Source: an uncultured bacterium (lineage in GTDB: Bacteria; Krumholzibacteriota; Krumholzibacteriia; LZORAL124-64-63). Taken from it: DNA of 64,000 bases. Each line of letters begins with the position of its first letter. The first letter of the stretch is position 1. The stretch spans positions 192,001 to 256,000 of the forward strand of contig CAVSZB010000007.1 in NCBI GenBank assembly GCA_963732385.1. The letters run 5' to 3'. Below the pieces are notes generated by a model. The model saw only the letters and a program-made list of their open reading frames with translations. It ran no database searches and was not told the origin of the DNA. Below are positions 29,083 through 51,718 of this stretch, piece by piece. Position numbers and translations under genes: made by a program.

Positions 29083-29111
29083 TTGACAAGGAGGCCGCCC
29101 GCCTGTATGCT
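29083..29111 (+). promoter_or_regulatory. Near-consensus sigma70 promoter for the Trm112-porU cluster
   Basis: TTGACA-N17-TATGCT. Confidence 0.7.
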
Positions 29112-29288
29112 GAATCTCGCCAACCTCTTCAGGGATGCCTCTCGCGGGGTCAACCGGTCCGCGCGGGGGGTCCGCTTCGATTCTGCTCCCGATTCCCCGG
29201 AGCCGTCGTTTTTTTGCGCCCGCTCCCGACGTGTTTCGGCGAATACAGTGGATCGCCTGTATCGCGTTGGTAGTGGGGGAGGGATGTA

Positions 29289-29465
29289 ATGCTCGATCCG
29301 AAATTGCTCGAGATCCTGGCCTGTCCCCGCTGCCGGGGACCGGTGACGCCGCTAGCCGATCATTCGGCCCTCGACTGCCGCGCCTGCGGACTGCGCTATC
29401 GGGTCGAGGACGACATCCCGATCATGCTGATCGACGAGGCCCGGAAGCTGACACCGGAAGGGTGA
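29289..29465 (+). CDS. Trm112/YcaR-family small zinc-ribbon protein (58 aa)
   Basis: Not in the ORF track. Manual translation MLDPKLLEILACPRCRGPVTPLADHSALDCRACGLRYRVEDDIPIMLIDEARKLTPEG; RBS GGAGGG. Confidence 0.92.
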   Translation: MLDPKLLEILACPRCRGPVTPLADHSALDCRACGLRYRVEDDIPIMLIDEARKLTPEG

Positions 29466-29473
29466 GCGGCCGC

Positions 29474-32400
29474 ATGTGCATCTTCACGCATTTCGCGGCC
29501 GGCGCGCTGGCCGGCGCGGCGACCGGCAATCCCTGGGCGGCGCTGGCCGCCGGCCTCGCCTCGCACGCGCTGCTGGACCTTTTCCCGCACTACGATTTCG
29601 CTGACTGGCGGCACGAAGTGCTGATCGGGCTGGCCCCGCTCCTGCTGCTCCTGTTTTCGCCCTTCGCTTCCGCGGCGGCGGTGAGCGGCGGGCTGGCCGG
29701 CTGCCTCCCCGATCTGGAGAATCTCCTGCATAAAATCGGCCGGTTGAAACGGCGTCGCATGATCTTCCCGACCCACACCGGCCTGCTGCCGCACGGCGCT
29801 CGCCGCGGCCCCGGCAACCTCTGGGTGCAGGCCGCCCTGGCTGCCGGCTGTCTCGCCGCGCTCGCCCTGGTGGCGCCCGGCGTGGCGCGGGCCGCGGATT
29901 TCCCGTTCGCGAACGACGGTTCTCCGGTGCCGGTGGACGCCCTGTCGGTCGATCCGTCGGCCGGGGCGCCGCTCGCCATCGTCGGTCCGCAGCAGGCGCG
30001 TCTGCTCGCCGTCGGCGATGCCGCCACGCGCCTGGAGGTGCGGTTCCCGGTGGAACGGGAGCCGGCCGACTGGTCTGCGGTGTCGCCGAGCGGGGTCTGT
30101 TGGCGCGAAGCGGGCATGGTCGTGCGCGATGGTGAGGAGGGGACACGCTCCCTGCCTTCGTCCCACGCCTGGATCCTGGCGGTGCCGACTCTGGAGACGC
30201 CGGTCGTCGGCTCGGTCGACGTGGTCTGGCGGCGGGAGCCATCGACTCCGGTCCCGGCGGCGCAGTTGGTGACCGTCGAGGGGCCCCGTCTGTTCCGGGG
30301 AGTTCCGCTGGCGATCGTGCGGGTGATCGCGGAGGCGCCCGGCGGCGGTATTCCCGAGCGCATCATCATCGACCTGACGCATCCGCCGGCCGGGGAGCCG
30401 GCAGTGGCGCTGGCCGCGTCGGGTCGCGCCCGGACGACGGCGACCCGGCAGGAGCCGCGGCCTTTCGGCGCCGACGGTGTGCTCAATCCCGAACTTTTCG
30501 CACGCCTCACCGCCGGCGATGTGCTGCGCGCGCAGATGGCTCCGACCCGCGCGGCCGCCGCCCATCCGTTCGGCCTGACGACGCGCTGGGCGCGGTTCGA
30601 AGTGCAGCAGACCGCGGTGCATCGCATCACCGGATTCGATCTCTCGCTGCTCGGCATCGTTGCGTCCCAGGTGGACCCCGCCACCCTGCGCCTCTATCGC
30701 GGCGGCGGTCTCCCCGAGGCCGCCAATCCGGTCCTGCCCGGGAGCTGGCAGGAGGGCTGGACCGGGCTGAGCGAAGTGGCGATCTCCGTGCGCGACGATG
30801 ACGGGATCTGGGACAGCAGTGACGCCATCACCTTCTACGGGGTTGGCGGCGACACCTGGCGCGATCGCTACAGTGCCGAGGCCGGCCGTCTGGACCACTT
30901 CGAACACCCCGGGACCGGCTACGGCGTCTATTGGCTCACCTGGGAACTGCCCGGCCTGGCGAGTCCGCTGCCCGGCGCGCCGCGGCGGATCGGCCCGCCC
31001 ACGCCGGCGCCGGCGCTCGGGGCCCCCCTCGTCACCTCATGGCGCGCCCGGCTGCACCGCGAGGAGTCGTACGAGGACGCCGGCGGCCGTCTGGCCGACA
31101 ATTGGGCCTGGGACACCCGGATCCGCACCCTGCGCGATCTGACCTTCGACGCCGGTCTGGTGGTGCCTGACCAGCCGACGCGGTTCGTGGTCGACGTGCG
31201 CGGCTATCACCAGCGCTCGACTTTGGATGCCGTCCTGAACCGGGCGACCGCCTGGATCAATGGCGATGCGGCCGGCGCCGCCACCAGCAGCTGGACGGTG
31301 TACGCCGAGCGGGACAGCCTGCGGGTGCGCATCGTGGGGGAGAGCCCGGCCCTGCTCACGGGCGTCAACACGCTTCATCTGCGCAACGAACTTGGCGCCA
31401 CCGGCGGGATCGACCTCGTGCTGGACAGCTTCGACCTGCTCTATTGGCAGCCGCTCGTCAAGAGCGCCGCCACCGGCTTCGCCTTCACGCACTGGGGCGA
31501 CCAGGTCGCCGCCCCGGGCGACACGATCGATCTGCGGGTGACCCTGCCGGACCTGGGCGCGGTCACGCTGTGGGACGTGTCGGATCCCCTTGCCCCGTTC
31601 ATCCTGACCGGCGATGTCTCCGGAGGTGGCGCGCCGGCGCTGACGGTCGGTCTCACGCGTACCCCCGGGCAGAGCCGGCACTTCGTGCTTTGCGATGAGA
31701 GCGATCCGGTCACGCCGCCCGTGCGCGCCCGCCGCTTCCCCTTCGATCTGCGGGCGACCCTGGGACCGTGCGACTACGTGGTCATTTACGATCCGCTCTT
31801 CGCGACAGCGGCCCAGGAGCTGGCGAGTCTGCGCAATGATCGGCTGCCGGACGTGGCGGCGCCGTCAGCACGGGCCGTGAACGAGGAAGCGATCTACGAC
31901 AATTTCTCCGGCGGCCGGAAAGACCCCTGGGCGCTGCGCAATTTCCTGAAGTGGCTCTATCTGCGGGACGCCGACCCGCTCAACCCGACCACCGGCCGGC
32001 GTCTGAAGTACGTCTGCCTGCTGGGCGATGCCTCGCGCGACTACCGGAACTACCTGCAGCACGATCCGGCCTCGCAGCTCTACGACTTCCTGCCGACCAT
32101 CGTGCGGACGGTCTTTCCCGACCGCGCGATCACCGGCGACTATCACGATCCGTTCGCTACCGATGACGCCCTGGTCAGTTTCGACGCTCCGGCGCCGGGG
32201 CAGGTGCTGGACGTCCCCGACGTGGCAACGGGGCGGTTGACGGTGCGCACTGCCGCGGCGGCGCTGGCCGCCGTGCGGCTCATCCGTGACGCGCAGCTCG
32301 ATCCGGCGCCGGGCAACTGGCGCAACCGGGTGGTGTTCGCGGCGGACGACCTGAGCCACGGCGGTTCCAGCTACGAGACCGCGCATACCGTGCAGACCGA

Positions 32401-33964
32401 GGAACTGGTGAACGGCCTGGTGCCGTTGTCGTTGGACGTCGTCAAGCTCTACATGGTGGAGTATCCGAATCCGCCGGGCAGCGTGGCCAAGCCGGCTGCG
32501 CGTCAGGAGGCGAGGCGGCTCCTGAACGAGGGGCTGACGATCTTCAACTACATCGGACACGGTTCAGAGAACGTGCTGGCGGATGAGCAGCTGTTCCTGA
32601 CCGAGGACATCGCCTCGCTGGCCAACGGCGCCCGCCGCGGCCTCTTCATCGCTTTCAGTTGTGACGTGGGGATCTACGACAGCCCCGTGACCCAGAGCAT
32701 GGCCGAGACTTTCGTGAGTCCGGGAGCGGGCGGCGCGATTGCCGCCATCGCCGCGGCGCAGGTGACCTTCGTCTCCTACAATAACGAACTCTCCGCGGAC
32801 TTATTCCGGTATCTCTATCCTGGGCGGCGGGTGGATTCGGGGTATTCGCCCGGCAGGGCCCTGCTGCTGGCCAAGCGCGCCAGCCAGTACCTCGACAACA
32901 GCCAGAAATACCTGCTGTTTGGCGATCCGGCCCTGCGCCTGCCGCAACCGTCCGCCGGACTCGCCTTTTTGCCAGGCAGCGTTGATACGCTGCGGGCCGG
33001 CCTGCCCGCCGCGACCCTGGCCGATCTCGCCGGCGCCGGCGTCGATGCGGGCGCGGGGTACGACCTGCGGGTCGAGGAATCGCGCCGTGACCGCGTCATC
33101 ACCACGGTCTTCCCGTATCTGCGCTACTCCCTGCCGGGCGCCGCCGCCTTCCGCGGCGGGGGGATCGCGGCGGCGGATCCGTTGCGGGTGGCGTTCCGCA
33201 CACCGTCGCAGTTGCATTACGGGGCGCACGGGCGGGTGCGGCTGATCGTCGAGGGGCCGGACGGCCCGCTGGCGGTGGCGTCGGAGCTGCCGGTGGTGGC
33301 GGCGGCGAGCGGGCAGACGGACGACCTGGTCGGGCCGGCCATCGCGCTGGCGTTCCCGGACGGACGCTACCGGGTGCCGCCCGGGACGGCGCTCGGCGGG
33401 GCACTGTTCGATACCAGCGGTGTGAACGTGCTCGGCACCACGCCCAACAGCAGCATCCTGTTCGAACTCGACGGCAGCGACGTCCTCACGGACGTGACCG
33501 ATGCCTTCACGTTCGCTCCCGGCAGCTACACCGAGGGGCGGGTCGAGCTGGCGCTGCCGCTCGATCTGACGCCGGGCGCGCACCGGCTGGCGCTGTTCGC
33601 CAGCGATGTGCTCGGCAACGTCGGCAGCGACACCCTCGCTTTCCAGGTCGTGCCGGTCGGCAAGGTCGGTCTGGCCGGCGTGACGCTTTTTCCGAACCCG
33701 ACGCCTGGCGACTGCCGGCTCGTTTTCGAATTGAGCGAACCGATGACCGTGGCGTGGGACATCTACACCGTGGGCGGACGGCGCCTCTGGCACCAGCTCG
33801 AGGAGTTCACCACGGCCGGTCCCAAGATTCTGCGCTGGGACGGTCGGGACGGCGAAGGCGACGAAATCGCCAACGGCGTCTATCTTTACGTCCTGCGCGG
33901 CAGCCGGGTCGATGATCCCGGGCGCGAAGTGCGAGAGAAGGGCCAGATCGTGATCATGAAGTGA
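29474..33964 (+). CDS. porU: PorU-like C25 (gingipain-family) cysteine peptidase with N-terminal membrane metal-hydrolase-like domain and C-terminal FlgD/T9SS-type domain
   Basis: IYDNFSGG..DPWALRNFL, LLGDAS, TDD, DVATGRL, catalytic YIGHG and FSC, YLLFGDPAL; C-terminal FPNP..IYTVGGR..WDGRD..ANGVYLY. Start moved to ATG 29474 because Trm112 occupies the upstream part of the ORF. Confidence 0.8.
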   Translation: MCIFTHFAAGALAGAATGNPWAALAAGLASHALLDLFPHYDFADWRHEVLIGLAPLLLLLFSPFASAAAVSGGLAGCLPDLENLLHKIGRLKRRRMIFPTHTGLLPHGARRGPGNLWVQAALAAGCLAALALVAPGVARAADFPFANDGSPVPVDALSVDPSAGAPLAIVGPQQARLLAVGDAATRLEVRFPVEREPADWSAVSPSGVCWREAGMVVRDGEEGTRSLPSSHAWILAVPTLETPVVGSVDVVWRREPSTPVPAAQLVTVEGPRLFRGVPLAIVRVIAEAPGGGIPERIIIDLTHPPAGEPAVALAASGRARTTATRQEPRPFGADGVLNPELFARLTAGDVLRAQMAPTRAAAAHPFGLTTRWARFEVQQTAVHRITGFDLSLLGIVASQVDPATLRLYRGGGLPEAANPVLPGSWQEGWTGLSEVAISVRDDDGIWDSSDAITFYGVGGDTWRDRYSAEAGRLDHFEHPGTGYGVYWLTWELPGLASPLPGAPRRIGPPTPAPALGAPLVTSWRARLHREESYEDAGGRLADNWAWDTRIRTLRDLTFDAGLVVPDQPTRFVVDVRGYHQRSTLDAVLNRATAWINGDAAGAATSSWTVYAERDSLRVRIVGESPALLTGVNTLHLRNELGATGGIDLVLDSFDLLYWQPLVKSAATGFAFTHWGDQVAAPGDTIDLRVTLPDLGAVTLWDVSDPLAPFILTGDVSGGGAPALTVGLTRTPGQSRHFVLCDESDPVTPPVRARRFPFDLRATLGPCDYVVIYDPLFATAAQELASLRNDRLPDVAAPSARAVNEEAIYDNFSGGRKDPWALRNFLKWLYLRDADPLNPTTGRRLKYVCLLGDASRDYRNYLQHDPASQLYDFLPTIVRTVFPDRAITGDYHDPFATDDALVSFDAPAPGQVLDVPDVATGRLTVRTAAAALAAVRLIRDAQLDPAPGNWRNRVVFAADDLSHGGSSYETAHTVQTEELVNGLVPLSLDVVKLYMVEYPNPPGSVAKPAARQEARRLLNEGLTIFNYIGHGSENVLADEQLFLTEDIASLANGARRGLFIAFSCDVGIYDSPVTQSMAETFVSPGAGGAIAAIAAAQVTFVSYNNELSADLFRYLYPGRRVDSGYSPGRALLLAKRASQYLDNSQKYLLFGDPALRLPQPSAGLAFLPGSVDTLRAGLPAATLADLAGAGVDAGAGYDLRVEESRRDRVITTVFPYLRYSLPGAAAFRGGGIAAADPLRVAFRTPSQLHYGAHGRVRLIVEGPDGPLAVASELPVVAAASGQTDDLVGPAIALAFPDGRYRVPPGTALGGALFDTSGVNVLGTTPNSSILFELDGSDVLTDVTDAFTFAPGSYTEGRVELALPLDLTPGAHRLALFASDVLGNVGSDTLAFQVVPVGKVGLAGVTLFPNPTPGDCRLVFELSEPMTVAWDIYTVGGRRLWHQLEEFTTAGPKILRWDGRDGEGDEIANGVYLYVLRGSRVDDPGREVREKGQIVIMK

Positions 33965-34029: not shown

Positions 34030-35058
34030 ATGAAGACGTGGAAGCTGATGGCGATGACGACTCTTGTGGGGCTGCTGAGCGCGGGCCCCTGCCTGGCCGT
34101 CTCCGGGGCCGGCGCGATTGCGCTCGAGTTCCCGATCGGCGCTCGCTACAACGCCCTGGGCGAGGCTGGCGTGGCCCTGGCCCAGGATGTCACTGCGGCC
34201 TGGTGGAATCCTGGCGGCCTGGCCTTTCTGCGGGATCGCGGCAAGTCGCATGATCTGCACATCATGCAGTCGAACCTCGCCGAAGGACTGGCGGACGACA
34301 TCGCCCTCTACTGGGCCGGCTACGCCAGTGGAGCCGGCAATAACAGCAACCTCGCCTTCAGCCTGACCTATCTCGACATGGGCGAGCAGGAGGCGACCGA
34401 CGAATCCGGCACGGTGACCGGAACCTTCGCGTCCTACATGTTCGCCTTCGGCGCGACCTACGGCGTCAAGCTGACCCCGAACCTCGGAGCCGGCATCGGC
34501 GCGAAGTACTTCCGCGACAAGCTGGCCGACGACAACGTGTTGAAGGACGGCCACGGCGGCTCCGGCTCGAGCTTCGCGCTCGACGCCGGCGTGCTCTGGA
34601 AAGTGCCGTCCTACCGGCTCAACGCCGCGCTGGCCGTGGCGAACCTCGGCCCCGGCGTCAAGCACGTGGATGCCGATCAGAGCGACCCGCTGCCGCGCAA
34701 GCTGACAGCCGGCCTGGCCTACAGCCTGTTCAGCAGCGAGGCCTCCGCGTTGCTGCTCGTGGCCGACGCGCAGGTGCCGCTTTTGAAGTGGAACGAGGAC
34801 AACGAGGACTACGGCGTCGGTTTCAACACGGACGAGAAGGTGTTCGGCTACGGCGCGGAGTGGTCCTACGTGCAGTCGCTGGCGGTGCGGATCGGCTACA
34901 AGGACGACTCCGCGGGCGACATCCAGGATCTGACCTGGGGTTTCGGTATCGATCTGGAGCGGTGGACGGGTGAGGGGATCACCTTCAGCTTCGCACAGGT
35001 GCCGCAGGCGAAGGATCTCGATCCGGTCAAGCGCTTCTCGCTGGGCTATCGTTTCTAG
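34030..35058 (+). CDS. porV: PorV/PorQ-family outer-membrane beta-barrel
   Basis: Signal peptide; LEFPIGARYNALGEAGVA..DVTAAWWNPGGL, DAGVLW, NLGP, PLP; C-terminal FSLGYRF; directly downstream of porU as in Bacteroidota. Confidence 0.8.
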   Translation: MKTWKLMAMTTLVGLLSAGPCLAVSGAGAIALEFPIGARYNALGEAGVALAQDVTAAWWNPGGLAFLRDRGKSHDLHIMQSNLAEGLADDIALYWAGYASGAGNNSNLAFSLTYLDMGEQEATDESGTVTGTFASYMFAFGATYGVKLTPNLGAGIGAKYFRDKLADDNVLKDGHGGSGSSFALDAGVLWKVPSYRLNAALAVANLGPGVKHVDADQSDPLPRKLTAGLAYSLFSSEASALLLVADAQVPLLKWNEDNEDYGVGFNTDEKVFGYGAEWSYVQSLAVRIGYKDDSAGDIQDLTWGFGIDLERWTGEGITFSFAQVPQAKDLDPVKRFSLGYRF

Positions 35059-35120: not shown

Positions 35121-38100
35121 GTGAGCTTGCGACGTCTGCCGTCGTTCCTGCCGCTGGCGATCGCCCTGATGAGCCTGTGCGTGGCGGACATCGCGCGCGC
35201 GGCAGTTCCGGGCGCCCCCCCGCATCCGGTGGAGCGGGTGCCGTTCGTCAAGCTCGGCGAACGGTCGCCTGAGGCGGAGGCGCGGCGGACGCGCGAACTG
35301 GCGCGTCAGGGGGCCGTCGCGCGGCGACAGCAGGAATTGCATGCGACGCTGGGCCCGCACCGGGTCTCGCGTCGCGCCCTGGCGCAACTGGCTGCGCAGG
35401 GGCTCGGTCCCGCCAGGCTCGCGTACGGAGACGACGCCGGCGCGGTGGCGGCCGCGAAAGCCGGCACCGACACGCTGCGCGTGCTGATCGTGAGGATCGG
35501 CTTCGCGGCCGACCGCAGCGGCGATCTCACCAGCGTCACGACCGACGGCAACTTCCAGCTCACGCCCGATCCGGCCGTGCACATCGATCCGCCGCCGCAT
35601 GATCGGGCCTTCTACGAGTCCCATCTCTACGGCCTGTCGCAATATTACACCTTCCAGTCGGGGGGCCGGCTGGTCATCCGCGGCCGGGTTCTGCCGGGCG
35701 TCGACAATGACTGCTACCGGCTCTCCGATCTGGCCGACTACGGACCGGGCGCCGGGGGCGGCTGGACCATCGAGCGGCTCGAGTGGCTGGTGCGGGACAT
35801 GATCGCCGCGGCCGACACCGGCCTCGTGGCCGATGGCCTCGATCTCTCCGACTTCGATGACAGTCACCCGTTCACCTACGTAATCTTCGTGCATGCCGGC
35901 GGCGACTTGCAAAGCGATGTCAACGGCGATTCGCCCAACGACGTGCCGACCTTCTTCATCAGTCTCGGCGAGCCGGCCGCGCTGCGGGGGGGCGGTACGC
36001 TCTCCGAGTGCTCGGTCATCCCCGAGAGCACCACGCAGGACGGCTACCTCGGCAGCATCGCGGCCGCGCTCTACCACGAATTCGGCCACGCGCTCGGCCT
36101 CGTGGACATTTACGACACCAGTTCCGGCCTGCCCAGCGCCGGCATCTGGACGCTGATGGACGCCGGTACGAATCTCGCCGCGAACGTCGGCTTTCCGACC
36201 CCGACGCCCGGGTATCCCGACAGCATCGAAGTGGCCACGGTGACCGGCCTGCTGCCGCCGTCGCTGGGGGCGTGGGACAAATGGTTCCTCGGCTGGCTGG
36301 AGACCGAGACACTCGCCGGAGGTCCTGACGCCATACGGCTGCCGGCGGTCCAGATTCCCCGGACCAGCGACGAGTACCTGCGCTACCGGAACGCCGGTTT
36401 CGACCTCCAACTGACCGATCCGCAGGCGCTCGTGGCCGGCGTTTCCCGGCGCGAGTTCTTCCTGCTCGAGAACCGCTGGGTGCCGATGTCGGGCGCGGAA
36501 CTGCCGGAGCAGGAGGGGATCGGCCTGCTGCGCGATCAGCAGACCGGCGTCATTCTCTATCTCGCCGGAGACGATCCCGACGGCGATGGACCCGAGCCGC
36601 CCCGTAACACCGGCATGTACGACTTCTTCATGCCTGACGGCGGCCTGCTCGTCTGGCACGTCAACCAGCAGCGGATTGAAGCGTCCCTCGCGGACAACAC
36701 GGTCAATGCCGACGGCGACGGACTGCGGCTCGTCGAGGCGGACGGCATCCAGGACATCGGCGTGATCGATCCGTACGTGCTCGGCTTCTGGGGCACCTCG
36801 AGAGACCCGTTCCATGCCGGCAAGCCCGGTTCCCCCGCCACCGGCGTGGCGCTGGGACAGGAGGGGGCGCCGTCGAGCCGTGCGTTCGATCGGGCGTGGA
36901 CCGGGGTCACGCTGGCCGACATCTCCGCCAACGAGGCGCTGATGACGTTGACGGCCGGGGTCGATCCGCTGGTATCGTCACCCTCGCCGGAACTTCCGCC
37001 TTACGACGCGGCCGAGGCCGAAGCCCTCGATGGCGAACCGGGTCCGCGCGCCCTCGACCACGCGTCGGTCACGCCGTGCCGCCTGGCGACCCATGAAGCG
37101 CTCGTCTATGCCGACGCGCCGCGGCCAGACTGGGGCGACAGCACCTTCAGCGCCTGGGGCGCCACGCTTTTCGCGCTGCGCCAGGACGGCAGCCAGCTTG
37201 CCTCTCCCCCGCCCGGTCTGCCGACCGGCGCGGTCTATCGCTTCGCGGCGCCACTGTCCGGACCGCCGATCGCGCTGTCGGGACTGCCTGATGTCGAAGG
37301 CGATCTGGTCATCGCCGCGGCGCGCGACGGGGTCGTGTTGGCGCTGCGAGGGGTGTCGGACGAGAACAATGTGCTGGTCGACTGGACGCGACGGGTCGGC
37401 GCGAGCCTGCCGTTCGCCCCCGCTGTCTGCGGTGATTCGCTGCTGCTCTGCTGCGTCGCCCCCGACACCGTGCGGCTGCTGCGTCCCGACGGCACGGTTG
37501 GCCAGGCCGTGCGGCTGACGAGGCCGTCGGGGACGTTCGTGGCGCCGCCGCTGCCGCTTGCGCTGCCCGCGCTGGGCGGCGCCTGCGTGGTGTTCAGAGC
37601 CGGCGGCTGGCAGATCATCGACCTGGCGTCCGATCAGGGGTTGCCGTCGCCGGCCTCGGTTTCCGTGCCATACGATTTCCCGCCGGGTGACCAGGCCCCG
37701 CGGGCGGTCGTCATGCCGCGTGACGACGGTGCCACGCTGGTGATCTGCGGGCCGGGCGGCGAGTTGCGCGCCTGGCGGCTCGGACCGTCCGGCGGCGAAG
37801 TGACGCGCCTGCCGTGGCCCGAGACGTTGGACGGGGTGCCGGCCGGTGATCCGGCCGTGGCCGATCTTGACGGCGACGGGCGGCACGATTTCGTAGTCGC
37901 CACGCCCCGCCGCGTGCACGCTTTGTCGGCCGCAGGCGTGGCGCTGCGCGGCTTCCCCGTCCCGCTGCGCGAACTGTTCCCGCTGGCCGACAGCACCCGC
38001 TTCGCCGGACCCGTTGCCGTGCTGGACGTGAGCGGCGACGGCCGCGACGAAATCTGCCTCGTCACCGACGGCGGACACCTGATCCTGCTCGACGCCGAGG

Positions 38101-38672
38101 GGCGTCTGGTCACCCGCACGCCGTTCCAGTGGGGCGGCAGCGGGGCGTCAGGTCTGGCGGCCGGCCGGTCCGGCGAAGGCGCCGGGCGGGTGCTTTGGCT
38201 GGCCGAAGCGGGCGGGCGGACCGCGCCGCCGCTGGCGCGGCGCTGGCTGAGCGGACGGCTGGTCGGTTATCGCGTGGCCGATTCGGCGCTCGCCGTCCTG
38301 CACACCTCCGAGTGGCTCGGACCCGGCGGCGGCCCGGCGCGCGGCGGACCGCTGGGCGAGCCGCGCGATCTGGGGGCGTTGTCGCCCCTGCGGGTCGAGG
38401 TGGACCGGGTCGTCGTCTATCCGAATCCGGCGCGGACCTCACGCGTGACGGTGCGGTTCTACAGTGCCGACACGGTGCCGGCGCGCCTGGCGCTGCACAA
38501 TGTCTCGGGCGAGGTAGTGGCGGAGGCGATTGCCCCGGCCATCGCCGGCGTGGTGAACGAGTATGGCTGGGACCTGCCGCGGCTCGCCGGCGGAGTCTAC
38601 CTGATGCGCGTCGAGGCGAGCGGGTCGACGGGACGGAAGCGCTGGCTGACGCGGCTGGCCGTGGAGCGATGA
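35121..38672 (+). CDS. Secreted M6 (immune inhibitor A-like) metalloprotease with FG-GAP repeats and T9SS-type C-terminal domain
   Basis: Signal peptide DIARA|A; IFVHAG, HEFGHALGLVDIYD, WTLMDAG, AWDKWFLGW, EFFLLENR, GLLVWHV, VEADG; DLDGDGRHD; C-terminal VYPNP...GGVYLMRV. Confidence 0.82.
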   Translation: MSLRRLPSFLPLAIALMSLCVADIARAAVPGAPPHPVERVPFVKLGERSPEAEARRTRELARQGAVARRQQELHATLGPHRVSRRALAQLAAQGLGPARLAYGDDAGAVAAAKAGTDTLRVLIVRIGFAADRSGDLTSVTTDGNFQLTPDPAVHIDPPPHDRAFYESHLYGLSQYYTFQSGGRLVIRGRVLPGVDNDCYRLSDLADYGPGAGGGWTIERLEWLVRDMIAAADTGLVADGLDLSDFDDSHPFTYVIFVHAGGDLQSDVNGDSPNDVPTFFISLGEPAALRGGGTLSECSVIPESTTQDGYLGSIAAALYHEFGHALGLVDIYDTSSGLPSAGIWTLMDAGTNLAANVGFPTPTPGYPDSIEVATVTGLLPPSLGAWDKWFLGWLETETLAGGPDAIRLPAVQIPRTSDEYLRYRNAGFDLQLTDPQALVAGVSRREFFLLENRWVPMSGAELPEQEGIGLLRDQQTGVILYLAGDDPDGDGPEPPRNTGMYDFFMPDGGLLVWHVNQQRIEASLADNTVNADGDGLRLVEADGIQDIGVIDPYVLGFWGTSRDPFHAGKPGSPATGVALGQEGAPSSRAFDRAWTGVTLADISANEALMTLTAGVDPLVSSPSPELPPYDAAEAEALDGEPGPRALDHASVTPCRLATHEALVYADAPRPDWGDSTFSAWGATLFALRQDGSQLASPPPGLPTGAVYRFAAPLSGPPIALSGLPDVEGDLVIAAARDGVVLALRGVSDENNVLVDWTRRVGASLPFAPAVCGDSLLLCCVAPDTVRLLRPDGTVGQAVRLTRPSGTFVAPPLPLALPALGGACVVFRAGGWQIIDLASDQGLPSPASVSVPYDFPPGDQAPRAVVMPRDDGATLVICGPGGELRAWRLGPSGGEVTRLPWPETLDGVPAGDPAVADLDGDGRHDFVVATPRRVHALSAAGVALRGFPVPLRELFPLADSTRFAGPVAVLDVSGDGRDEICLVTDGGHLILLDAEGRLVTRTPFQWGGSGASGLAAGRSGEGAGRVLWLAEAGGRTAPPLARRWLSGRLVGYRVADSALAVLHTSEWLGPGGGPARGGPLGEPRDLGALSPLRVEVDRVVVYPNPARTSRVTVRFYSADTVPARLALHNVSGEVVAEAIAPAIAGVVNEYGWDLPRLAGGVYLMRVEASGSTGRKRWLTRLAVER

Positions 38673-40533: not shown

Positions 40534-41528
40534 CCGCGTTTGCGGTCGCCTGCTCTGCCGCCGCCCTCCTGCCCGGCTGCGTGCCGGCGGCGGGGGAGCG
40601 GTTCCCACGGGTGGTGGCGGAAGACGCGGCCCCGGCCCTCCGGCCCACGCTCGACTCCGGCCGGCCCGTGCCGCGGCGGCTCGATTTCCTCTACCTGTAC
40701 GAGAACGATCGCACGGCGCCCTACTATCCGCTCGAAGGGGTGGGAGCGGTCGCGTACGCGTCCGACGGCACGCTCTTCCTTTGCGACGAGAAGGGGGGAC
40801 GCGTGCACGGCTGTGTGGGGGGCACCGGCGAGTGGTTCCAGTTCGATGGCGGTCCCGAACAGCCGTTCCGTCCGGTCGACGTGCAGGTGGACGGCTTCTC
40901 CGTGCTGGTGCTGGACTACGGTTCGCGCCTGCTGCTGCGTTATGAGACGGGGGGCGCGCTGCAGGATCGGCTGCTCAGCTTCCGCAATCTTGACGCGACG
41001 CTCGATCGTCTGCCGGTCGCTTTCGACGTGGATCGCGATGGTCGGATCGTCTGCGCCGACGCCGGCGCGGAGCAGATCGTGCTGCTCGATTCATTCCTGA
41101 ACCTTTCCCAGGTGCTGGGCGAACCGGGGACACACCGCGAGCAGTTCCGCGCTCCCAGTGGTGTGGCTTTCCGGGACGACGGTGGTTTTGTCGTGGCCGA
41201 TCGCGGCAACCGCCGCCTGCAGTGGTACAACCGGCTCGGCTATTTCGAGGACGTGGTGGGGGGAGAATTCGATCCCCGCAATCCGCTGCTCACTCCGCAG
41301 GGGCTCGACACCGACGCGTACGGCAACCTGTTCGTGGCCGATCCGGCCGCCGGCGCCGTGCATGTGTTCGGTTCCGATCTGGTTCTGCTCTTTTCCGCCG
41401 GCTCCGAACTCGGGCTGCTGGCTGCGCCCCAGCAGCCGCTGGACGTGGCCGTGGGGCCGGAGGATCTGCTGGCGGTGTCCGACCGTGGCCGGCAGGCGGT
41501 GCTCGTCTACCGCATCGTCTACGACTGA
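40509..41528 (+). CDS. NHL-repeat (beta-propeller) lipoprotein
   Basis: Lipobox LLPG-C; FRAPSGVA..VVADRGNRRLQ, PQGLDTD..GNLFVAD, PLDVAV..VSDRG. Confidence 0.8.
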   Translation: MRRFAPVLTAFAVACSAAALLPGCVPAAGERFPRVVAEDAAPALRPTLDSGRPVPRRLDFLYLYENDRTAPYYPLEGVGAVAYASDGTLFLCDEKGGRVHGCVGGTGEWFQFDGGPEQPFRPVDVQVDGFSVLVLDYGSRLLLRYETGGALQDRLLSFRNLDATLDRLPVAFDVDRDGRIVCADAGAEQIVLLDSFLNLSQVLGEPGTHREQFRAPSGVAFRDDGGFVVADRGNRRLQWYNRLGYFEDVVGGEFDPRNPLLTPQGLDTDAYGNLFVADPAAGAVHVFGSDLVLLFSAGSELGLLAAPQQPLDVAVGPEDLLAVSDRGRQAVLVYRIVYD

Positions 41529-44500
41529 CGCTCCGGGGGTGGTCGACCGTGCGGATGCCCCCCCGGCGCGTGATCCTGCTCGCGGTTCTCGGACTCGGAC
41601 TTCCCGCTGCGGCGTGGGCCTTACCGTCACCTGCGGATCGCATTACGCCGGCCGACAGTACGGCCGCGCCGCCCGACAGCTCCCTCTGGCGCCGTGAAAC
41701 CGAATGGCACCTGATCGCGCCCGGTACGCCGGCGCTGCCGCTGGCGCATGGCCTGGTGGTGCCGGGCAGCCTGCGCGCCTGGGTCGGGGGGGCGCCCTGG
41801 CAGGAGCCGGAGGACTTCCGCGTCGCCGCGCGGGAAGGGGTCTGGCTGCCGCGCCGTTCGCTCGGCCCGGCCGGCGGCGATCCGGTGCGGGTGCGGCTGG
41901 TCTACCGCTTCCTGCCGGCGCCGCTGCCGGTCGTGCGCGAACTGCACGCGCCCGCGGCGGCGCCGCCGCCGGCGGGCGCAGACTCGATTCCGGTCGGGCA
42001 GGCGACGGGCCCGGTGGCGGCCGGTGCCCCTCCCGGGTCGGCGGCTGCCCTGGATCCGCTCACCGTGCGGGGGAGCAAGTCAGTGCGGCTCGCTTCGGGA
42101 AACCGGCGCGAACTGGTTGTCGACCAGACCCTGCGCCTGGCGATCGAGGGGCGGCTGACCCCCGAAATCACGGTGCGGGCGGCGTTGTCCGACGACAACC
42201 TGCCGGTCGTGCCGGAAGGGAACACCGAGCAGCTGCGCGACGTGGACAAGGTCCTGGTCGAACTGGAATCGGCGCGCTGGCGCGCCACGCTCGGCGACTT
42301 CGTGGCGCGGCGCGAGGGGAGCGTGTTTGGCGACTACCGCCGCAAACTGCAGGGGGTGGCGCTCACCGCCACGCCCGGTCCGGCGCGGGCGGATCTGCTC
42401 GCCGGCTCGCCCCGAGGCGTCTATCGGACGCTGCAGGTCCGGGGCCAGGAGGCCAACCAGGGTCCTTACCGTCTGGGCGCTGGCGAGGCCGGGCGGGAAC
42501 TGTTCATCGTCGCGGGATCGGAACGGGTTGCGTTGGACGGACAGCCGCTGACGCGCGGCGCCGACCGGGACTACATCATCGACTATGTGCGCGGCACGAT
42601 CACCTTCACCTTCCGCCGACTCATCACCGCCGAAACGACCATTGTGGTGGAGTTCGAGGAGGGGGAGGGGCCGTACGCCCGCACCGTGACCGGCGGCGGC
42701 GCCTCCGGAGATTTCACGCTGCCGTGGGGCGATGGTGTGCCGGGGGGGATGGGGGTGCGTCTCACCCGGGAGGGCGACGATCCCCAGCGCCTGCGCACCG
42801 GCGAACTGGGCGATGCCGACCGGGCCGCCCTCGCGGCCGCGGGCGACGATCCGACCCGGGCGGTTGCTGACGGCGTCGTCGAGACCGAGCCTGGGCAGGG
42901 GCACTACCGGCGCGAGGCGCTCCCCGACGCGGAGATCTGGGTGTACGACCCGGCCGGCGCCTACGAGATCAGCTTCTTCTACGCCGGCGCCGGCGTCGGC
43001 AACTACGGGCTCGATTCGCTCACCGTGGCGGGGGTGCGCGCCTACGGCTGGCGCGGCGACGGCGGCGGCAGCTACCGCGTGGGGCGGCCTTTGCCGCTGC
43101 CGGAGAGCCGGAGCGTCACGACGCTGACCGCGCGACTCGGCCGGATCGAGCAGCCGCTGCTGGCGGTGGAGTGGAACGCGGGTCGTCTGGATCGCAACGC
43201 CTTCTCCAGCCTCGACGATGCCGACAACGTCGGGGTGGCCTGGTCCGCCCGCGTCGCCCCGGGGGAGAGCGAGGTGCGCCTGGCTGGCCGGGAGCTGGGG
43301 CGGGTCGCGCTCGAGGCGTCCCACGAGAACCGCGACAGCCGCTTCCGGCCGTTCGTCCTGCACCGCGACCTTTTCACCTACGATCGCTGGGGACTGGCCG
43401 GCCGGGCGCGCCGCGCCGGCTTTCTCGAGGAGCGCGACGTGGAGAGCCGGGTCACCGGCACCTGGGTGGCGGGCGGCGAGACGCGGCGCGCTCGGGTGGC
43501 GGGCGAATGGGGACGCCTGTCCCACGGCGGTGCGCTTGACGCGGACCGTCGGTCGCTCGACGCCGGCTGGCTCTGGGGGAGATGGAACGGTGCGTCGCTC
43601 TGGGAACAGGCGTCGGCTGCCGACCGGCGGGATCCGCTCGCGGTCGAGCGCCGGCGGCAACGGCAGGCGCTGGTCTGGACCGGTCGCCTCGCGCGCCCCG
43701 GGCTGATCTACGAGGCTGAGCAGTGGCGCGACGCGGCGGTCACCGGTCCCGCCGCCGCGGGGGCCCGTCTGCGGCGCTGGGGCGGCACGCTCGAGGCGTC
43801 GCCGGGACGGTCGCTGCGCTGGCTGGCCGGCTTCGAGCGGGGGCTGTCCGATTCGCTACGCGCCGACGCCTGGCAGCGCGAGCGCGATGCCCGCACCTGG
43901 CGCGCGCAGCTTGCGGCGCCTCCGGTGGCGGGGGTGCGCGTGTCGGGTGAGGGGACCTTGCGCAGGCTCCTGGGCAGCGCCGGCGGCGAACAGACCACGC
44001 GGCTGGCGCGTCTCAACCTGGCCGGACTCTGGCCGCGTCTCGGCAGTGACTGGAGTCTGGAATACGGTGTGGACAACAGTCGGATCGAACTGCTGGACCG
44101 GCAGATCGTGTTCGTCGGGCTGCGGTTGGGGGACTACGATCGCGACGGCAATTTCCTGGGGCGCGGCCAGGGCGATTACAACGTTGTCTACGCCGGCACC
44201 GACAGCCTGGTCGCGACGACGGAGGTGAAGGGGAATCTTGCCTGGCGTCAGCAATGGCGGTTGCCGGACGGGGGCCGGGGCTGGGGCCGAGTCACCGCCC
44301 TGACCACGCTCGCCGTCCGCGGACGCAGTCGCGCCGATGAGGTGGGGCCGCTGCTGCGCTTCGCCTCCGCTGCGCTGTTCGATCCGGAATCGACCGTGCT
44401 GGGCGAGGTGGGCTGGCAGCAGGAACTGGACCTGCTGCAGGGATGGCAGGGCTGGGATCTGCGGCTCAAGCACGATTTCGCGCAGGCCCTCGACCGGCAG

Positions 44501-45014
44501 TACGCTGCCCACCCGGAGGACCGGTTGCGCCGGCTGGAGCAGGGCACGGTCACGCGGAGTCTCTCCGAACGCACCACGCTGCAGTGGCGCGCCGGACGCG
44601 AGGCGGAGCGGCGCGCCACGCGGTCAGGCTCCGTGGCGGGAGAGCGCAGCTACGCCGCCACGATCTGGCGCCACGAAGGGGAATGGTCGCTGCGGCCCGG
44701 CGCCGGCAGTCGTCTGGCGCTGGCCGGGGAGTACATCCGGCGGGACGACGCGGTTTCGGGCTGGCGGCAGCGGGAGTGGGCGGTGCGCCCCTCTGCCCGC
44801 TGGCGGCTGGAGCAGCGCTGGAGCGGCACCGTGGAGGCGCGCTGGGCGCAGGTCACCAGCGCCGCGCCGACCGGCGCGATCCGCCCCTATTTCTTCGCCT
44901 ATCCCGGCGTGAACCGGGACCTGAGTGCGCGGCTGGCCTGGGATCCCTCCGCGACACTCAGCGTCGCGGCTGTCTACTTCGGACGTCAACTGGGCGGGAG
45001 GGGGTGGCAGCACG

Positions 45015-51718
<6,704 letters not shown>

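Follow-up and report, generated by a model that had tools for sequence, protein, structure and literature searches.

A PorU-like sortase joined to a five-helix membrane domain in Krumholzibacteriia: a probable polyprotein split by signal peptidase I

Single reading frames that encode an inner-membrane protein followed by an exported one are a known kind of system, rare in bacteria. An example is reportedly FbcH, the cytochrome b/c1 precursor of Bradyrhizobium japonicum, in which one gene is said to encode a polytopic inner-membrane protein first, then an internal signal and a second protein that is exported and cut free; relatives are said to have separate genes. Here we describe a 1496-residue frame at positions 29474–33964 (+) of a 64,000-nucleotide stretch (the window) from an uncultured bacterium of the class Ca. 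Krumholzibacteriia (assembly GCA_963732385.1, contig CAVSZB010000007.1). The frame places a membrane domain ahead of PorU, the sortase of T9SS, the type IX secretion system. As expected of a polyprotein of the FbcH kind, one frame encodes two proteins that are separate in relatives, and behind an internal h-region small residues occupy −3 and −1. In contrast to FbcH, where a spacer reportedly serves, the h-region here is the first protein’s last helix; moreover, the second protein of the pair is a T9SS transpeptidase destined for the cell surface, so that the two probably finish in separate membranes. What is new is the partner pair, the shared helix and a full series of separate, fused and lost states.

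Three other described systems bear on the comparison. Staphylococcus aureus LtaS, like the present protein by prediction, is cut by signal peptidase I (SPase I) between its membrane and extracytoplasmic catalytic domains; LtaS is one enzyme that cleavage inactivates (PMC12260438), whereas the present chain joins two proteins with separate evolutionary histories and would yield the working form once cut. T9SS cargo and PorU normally have a signal peptide of the classical type, which SPase I removes (PMC5445135). With Bacteroidota PorU the present protein shares the C25 domain, a His/Cys dyad, a C-terminal sorting-type domain, porV directly 3′, and a genome with SprA and many proteins bearing a C-terminal domain (CTD). 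It differs in that an N-terminal membrane domain replaces the simple signal peptide and in having Gln in place of Arg722, a residue described as conserved in Bacteroidota PorU (PMC4560394). YdjM and phospholipase C have been related by profile comparison, and a relationship to DUF4184 is described in the same source (PMC8557891). The membrane domain resembles YdjM, Zn-dependent phospholipase C (PF00882) and DUF4184 in its N-terminal His, Pro-Asp motif, SHxxxD helix and further His, with weak matches to all three; unlike YdjM, where the order is His, Pro-Asp, His..His, SHxxxD, it has SHxxxD before Pro-Asp, within about 135 aa. Our literature search, with most subscription journals outside its reach, returned no description of the fusion and no paper joining “Krumholzibacteri” with type IX secretion.

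The fused frame and its distribution

Translation of 29474–33964 gives a single frame with no stop. Its parts are as follows.

29474–29875 (+): five-helix membrane domain, aa 1–134, a putative Zn phosphoesterase judged by conserved ligands, with five helices in an AlphaFold2 model; predicted N-in, C-out
29816–29872 (+): fifth helix, aa 115–133 in the AlphaFold2 model, homologous to the standalone C-terminal helix; the enzyme’s last helix and the h-region of the internal signal
29876–29893 (+): c-region P135-G-V-A138-R-A140, recognized by conservation; predicted SPase I cut after nt 29893
29894–33964 (+): predicted mature PorU-like C25 transpeptidase, 1356 aa, with a C-terminal sorting-type domain (NF033707; phmmer to 6ZA2)
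31775–32941 (+): Peptidase C25 domain, aa 768–1156 (Pfam E 1.9e-65)
32558–32560 (+): His1029 of the catalytic dyad, aligned to Porphyromonas gingivalis PorU (PDB 6ZA2)
32660–32662 (+): Cys1063 of the catalytic dyad, aligned to the same structure

Upstream of Met 29474 the frame stays open from 29135. Alignment marks this Met as the conserved start; the alternative at 29135 was rejected, as it overlaps a small gene (29291–29466) and is not conserved. An earlier note on this DNA had quoted from the N-terminal part a His/Asp set, a basic stretch, a hydrophobic helix and PGVARA|AD (aa 135–140, ending at nt 29893), and all are present; the C25 His and Cys that it called intact are His1029 and Cys1063, which align with the 6ZA2 dyad.

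A profile of the first 134 aa was searched against 208 genomes of the class and found the membrane domain in 99. By family, with the host genome left out, it occurs in 52/90 genomes of f1, 35/43 of f3 (one match, G112, being a weak fragment), 7/8 of f7, 3/13 of f8 and 1/1 of f9; the profile did not find it in f2 (0/7), f4 (0/23), f5 (0/12) or f6 (0/10). In f1, 40 of the 52 matches lie in open frames of at least 990 aa, and a standalone-gene stop is present in none of the 52. Of the remaining 12, eight are cut off by a contig edge or have their parts on different contigs, and four break past the junction. A search for longer forms yielded 27 proteins, 26 of them 1470–1508 aa long with a C25 domain and one partial.

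The read-through recurs in 48 distinct genome N-termini and in 21 distinct junctions from 80 metagenome loci, which answers the earlier note’s call for a check in independent genomes. Contigs from two public runs (X3, X20) also bridge the junction, carrying a net in-frame insertion (+6 nt) there, and come from relatives about 90% alike; the sequencing runs covered small shares of the stretch (at most 0.18). That an RNA-library contig spans the junction is not proof of transcription. We thus conclude that the 1496-aa frame is a genuine, conserved fusion in one subclade of f1. A frameshift or assembly artefact was considered and rejected, since dozens of genomes and independent contigs read through.

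Outside f1 the arrangement differs. In f3, f7, f8 and f9 the domain gene is separate in 19/19 loci, with its stop at codon 133–137; 18 of the 19 have, as scored by eye, a start codon overlapping this stop; in 17 the next gene is a PorU homolog that brings its own N-terminal signal peptide, the other two loci running off the contig. The ancestral state is accordingly two translationally coupled genes, and the fusion is derived, because the wider family, in the best 150 of its clusters, consists almost entirely of standalone proteins of 130–145 aa.

The internal signal, its predicted cleavage and later loss

The earlier note had read the basic stretch and the h-region after it as an internal signal. 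A signal with a conserved c-region does stand there; the basic stretch, by contrast, belongs to the membrane domain, where it surrounds the His101/His107 motif (standalone forms have basic residues at the same place), and the h-region is the domain’s own last helix and not an appended one. Relative to the standalone protein, only the c-region is new in the fused forms.

That c-region is conserved in a position-specific way. Among the 48 read-through N-termini, which include kin and so are not independent, Pro135 (−6) is found in 45, Ala138 (−3) in 41, Ala140 (−1) in 45 and Ala141 in 38. Alanine at non-site positions is far less frequent: 11/48 at 137, 10/48 at 139, and an average of about 8/48 over 142–153. 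The 21 metagenome junctions have Pro135 in 20, Ala138 in 15 (with Val in four more) and Ala140 in 19. Past the c-region, the linker varies in sequence and length. Because adjacent positions contrast in this way while the linker varies freely, the alignment indicates selection for an SPase I site. The host genome encodes SPase I, and we consider it very likely that the enzyme cuts after Ala140. A 140-aa membrane protein, about as long as the standalone form, would result, together with a PorU whose first residue is Ala141; such a cut would regenerate both ancestral proteins. In databases the fused proteins are entered as PorU, as C25 peptidase or as hypothetical, and programs that predict N-terminal signals would overlook the export signal.

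We therefore favor a two-protein polyprotein cut by SPase I, a reading that comparison of the homologs makes likely. Of the two possibilities raised by the earlier note, this is the one that the comparison supports well; a sortase tethered permanently to the inner membrane is unlikely. In the scheme that we propose, the ancestor had, as the sister families show, a gene for an inner-membrane protein of five helices and ~135 aa; its stop overlapped the start of porU, to which its translation was coupled, and PorU had a signal peptide of its own. In one subclade, we infer, a short deletion joined the enzyme’s last helix to the signal-peptide c-region. The membrane domain would insert N-in, and helix 5 would start Sec export of the 1356-aa PorU. 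After cleavage, the inner membrane would retain a 140-aa enzyme of ancestral size, and free periplasmic PorU would presumably be exported through SprA by means of its C-terminal domain and, by analogy with Bacteroidota, work with PorV as a cargo-anchoring transpeptidase. Fusion would convert coupled translation into fixed 1:1 synthesis. Linkage to porU and fusion together argue for co-expression.

The later history of the fusion was examined with a tree of AccA, PorU and PorV that included 62 of 81 loci; the 19 with truncated or broken genes were left out. In this tree, f1 consists of a domain-less clade and a clade that holds all fused forms and three nested domain-less genera (FastTree 0.998). 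A 27-row subset tree, drawn from f1 and f6 with 12 further close relatives set aside, recovered the fused-form clade with an SH-like approximate likelihood-ratio support of 92, and forcing the 15 fused rows together was rejected (approximately unbiased test, p = 2e-5; the constrained group was defined by trait, after the 62-locus tree had been seen). Because domain-less genera nest inside the fused clade and the constraint was rejected, we conclude that the domain was lost again after fusion in the nested lineages. One of these, G017 (locus L037), lacks the small CPxC gene along with most of the membrane domain; 5′ of porU lies a stretch like domain aa 83–93, then a helix with the Trp-Cys-Pro spacing of helix 5 and Ala at −1. 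This leftover helix appears to have been reused as PorU’s plain N-terminal signal peptide. The class would thereby offer an unusually complete natural series of the origin and resolution of a polyprotein, from coupled genes, through fusion with a helix as export signal, to a loss that apparently left an ordinary signal peptide.

Several observations weigh against this account. Four f1 assemblies (G002, G123, G141 and G161) read through the junction and then break; likewise, metagenome contig L199 breaks past the junction and L180 diverges before helix 5. In G002 and G141 accA is broken too, which suggests that their breaks are sequence errors. G123 (locus L071) has a lone frameshift in the linker, with the 3′ PorU frame intact at 1340 aa and lacking a signal, and this could be either an error or a re-split. 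The earlier note had named a stop or frameshift between the domains in relatives as damaging to its reading: no standalone stop was found among the 52 f1 matches, and G123 has its frameshift. By profile the G017 relic is weak, with E 1.3 for the top-scoring of 84 frames, and its rarity was judged with a motif composed after the relic had been seen. The export route is drawn by analogy, with the GldM and GldN models unmatched in the host genome (the controls were silent as well). Finally, hydrolase activity of the membrane domain rests on conserved ligands and sub-threshold Pfam matches, and no solved fold matched.

The two partners and the question of a shared function

The membrane domain has the motifs TH6, SH31-D35-PH39, PD80-E82, PTH101 and PH107. 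Among 130 members, His31, Asp35, His39, Asp80 and His101 are invariant, and His6, Asp41, Glu82 and His107 are conserved in at least 90%. An AlphaFold model from the 130 sequences (predicted local distance difference test, pLDDT, 96) has helices at 3–17, 20–35, 45–60, 67–87 and 115–133; a single-sequence fold of aa 1–370 reached a pLDDT of 39, too low for use. The summed Lys+Arg frequency is 4.44 and 1.19 in the metal-side loops vs. 0.42 and 0.68 on the opposite side. As the ligand-bearing loops are rich in Lys+Arg, the metal site is predicted to be cytoplasmic, with the C-terminus of helix 5 outside, as cleavage needs.

The earlier note had called this domain a YdjM-like hydrolase. The conserved ligands and weak sub-threshold Pfam matches among the 130 members (YdjM 43/130, Zn_dep_PLPC 19/130, DUF4184 7/130) agree only loosely with that description, and the motif order is swapped. 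The best YdjM (PF04307) match has E 0.00056, and the members listed score 13–19 bits, with the gathering score at 29 bits; a Pfam scan of the 1496-aa protein gave no YdjM match, and no family member reaches the cut-off. Residues ~50–105 align with YdjM profile positions 7–64 and residues ~20–45 with the late SHxxxD block, the latter by hhalign over 22 columns at a probability of 26%. Membership of YdjM was rejected on the two counts of the missing gathering-score match and the swapped blocks; the domain belongs to a separate, unnamed five-helix His/Asp family. A sequence search of solved structures found nothing under E 0.5, and fold searches matched no solved fold, phospholipase C included, which shows neither a new nor a different fold. 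In the ESM Atlas the top clusters are unnamed (0.91–0.94) and the closest named is YdjM (0.77/0.76), a lead only. Our best reading, at about even chances, is that the domain is a multi-zinc phosphoesterase working at the cytoplasmic face, with a lipid phosphate ester as its substrate; such a substrate could be a polyprenyl-phosphate-linked envelope precursor or a glycerophospholipid.

The wider family comprises 1606 clusters at 50% identity, and among the best 150 of these nearly all are standalone proteins of 130–145 aa, which points to a widespread, unnamed family of membrane metalloenzymes. No confirmed relative was found on viral contigs. In the 80 metagenome loci, several of which are duplicates, distant members neighbor spoIIP (14), murJ (2), a WecA-like transferase (3, two of them with exosortase EpsI) and glycosyltransferase/epimerase clusters (4); these lend modest support to the phosphoesterase reading, and many other neighbors, such as hrcA, dnaJ, lepA and topoisomerase, are unrelated. 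At spore-former-type loci (a subset of L157–L174, L216 and L234) the member lies 3′ of gpr-spoIIP and 5′ of lepA or hrcA. Divergent members at L212, L217, L218 and L231 come after PrsT and/or WecA-like genes, with EpsI at two of the loci; the exosortase-linked members are divergent, and their late histidines are mostly missing. These loci may represent a second protein-sorting context for the family.

The part past residue 140 scores 416.5 bits on the NCBIfam PorU model NF033707, just below the cut-off of 420, and its fused orthologs in G124, G171 and G142 lie above it (512, 488 and 458 bits). The phmmer match to 6ZA2 (E 1.3e-32) aligns to near the C-terminus. The His/Cys dyad is kept in 62/62 PorU proteins of the class. 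Gln1096 (nt 32759–32761) stands where Bacteroidota PorU has Arg722; Arg is found there in 1/62, and Gln, Glu, Thr or another residue in the other 61, with or without the membrane domain. We thus file this part provisionally as a PorU-like ortholog rather than a Bacteroidota-type sortase for anionic lipopolysaccharide. The host genome has SprA, LpxC and 67 type A CTD matches; models for GldM and GldN had no match in it, and the controls were silent too. Possibly the host has a T9SS without the known motor and ring, and the data point to sorting of the T9SS kind beyond Bacteroidota, in which the active-site region of PorU has changed. At one locus, L058 (G047:C85:55881–63600), two full porU copies stand in tandem.

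Does the membrane enzyme serve the sortase? The earlier note had proposed that it makes or recycles the lipid anchor that the sortase uses. In a general form, the enzyme would make, trim or recycle a lipid or lipid-carrier acceptor for PorU cargo, and the fusion would have been selected for that; such a partnership is compatible with cleavage. In its favor, five families have the domain linked to porU, either as a coupled gene or as a fusion; distant relatives sometimes adjoin envelope genes (spoIIP, murJ, WecA-like, glycosyltransferase); the presence of Arg722 in only one of the 62 PorU proteins hints at another acceptor; and in P. gingivalis the T9SS is tied to lipid A dephosphorylation through LpxE, an unrelated PAP2 enzyme (PMC12704123). 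However, PorU is matched at E ≤1e-83 in each of the 34 tested domain-less genomes (20 of f1, 14 of other families), and because they keep PorU the domain would be accessory to T9SS sorting and not required. In the 28 domain-less loci that were read, porU occupies the same accA-porU-porV setting where the contig allows, and a plain signal peptide is visible by eye in 25. The absence of Arg722 does not depend on the domain, one weak column emerged when the 1356 PorU columns were scanned in three contrasts, and the family is widespread outside any T9SS context, with many unrelated neighbors. Moreover, several of the 80 metagenome loci are duplicates, the exosortase-linked members have diverged, and the predicted metal site faces the cytoplasm. 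A link to the anchor was therefore not established: whole families and nested genera retain porU-porV with no domain found in them, and no PorU column co-varied convincingly with its presence. Column 852 (Asp in 24/25 domain-less proteins, Asn, Lys or Arg in most domain-bearing ones) was not used as evidence, because it was picked post hoc from 1356 columns, reflects two to three events and failed the three-contrast scan. We judge the partnership unlikely. Slightly less likely still is its fullest version, in which a motif-swapped zinc enzyme would supply or recycle a lipid-linked acceptor for a reduced, non-Bacteroidota type IX system (SprA, PorU without Arg722, PorV, no recognizable GldM/GldN), and the shared-helix polyprotein would fix equal synthesis of the anchor-processing enzyme and the sortase on opposite sides of the envelope.

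Other explanations question how, or whether, the polyprotein is divided. The chain might stay whole for part of its life and hold PorU at the periplasmic face of the inner membrane, with SPase I cleavage slow or conditional, much as LtaS is cut as a means of control (PMC12260438); a multi-helix N-terminal domain could slow cleavage. Against this, the c-region matches the textbook pattern of an efficient site, the PorU that most relatives encode at this locus is freely exported, and the C-terminal sorting domain and porV are retained, so that we find a regulated tether improbable. PorU could also arise mainly from an in-frame start near codon 91–96 with a long signal peptide, read-through being incidental. 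Of 64 read-through N-termini, 33 have ATG at codon 91, which also appears to be the start in G017, and the window has TTG91 and ATG96; yet 26 of the 64 have no ATG, GTG or TTG at codon 91, that position is simply hydrophobic in standalone forms, and with no stop the full-length enzyme, whose ligands are fully conserved, can come only from the fused chain. Such a start is more improbable than the tether. Overlapping genes fuse easily and the domain is dispensable, so the fusion may have been neutral in origin; as a full explanation, however, neutrality or an assembly artefact is highly improbable, as the dozens of genomes and independent contigs rule out the artefact and the cleavage motif has been kept while PorU N-terminal regions drifted to about 35–40% identity.

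Genes and elements around the fusion

The gene order is dnaE-like, accA, a 58-aa CPxC gene, the fusion, a gene of the PorV family and one for an M6 protease that carries a type A CTD. The features nearest the fusion are given below.

29083–29139 (+): sigma70-like promoter TTGACA-17-TATGCT with a leader motif starting GCCAACC (one site; shuffles mean 0.0)
29291–29466 (+): 58-aa CPxC/CxxC protein, a conserved upstream neighbor (0 Pfam families matched), which we take to be Trm112/UPF0434-like
34030–35058 (+): PorV/PorQ-family outer-membrane protein (NF033709, 186.5 bits, cut-off 90)

The GCCAACC motif begins about 7 nt past the sigma70-like promoter. The combined pattern occurs in 32 of 46 f1 loci, with or without the membrane domain, and in 1 of 34 others; Rfam had no match to the leader (29083–29139). 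The promoter likely drives a unit of small gene, fusion and porV, and the leader motif is a possible operator or leader element. The PorV/PorQ gene sits 3′ of porU in fused, separate and domain-less genomes alike.

Directly 3′ of porV, at 35121–38672 (+), lies a metalloprotease of the M6 family, a likely cargo that has FG-GAP repeats as well as a type A CTD. Further on, 41222–45046 (+) is a 1274-aa frame with a short, weak SprA match (E 3.6e-7) and a possible C-terminal barrel, and would be a second SprA-like fragment; the main SprA is encoded elsewhere in the host genome, on contig C4.

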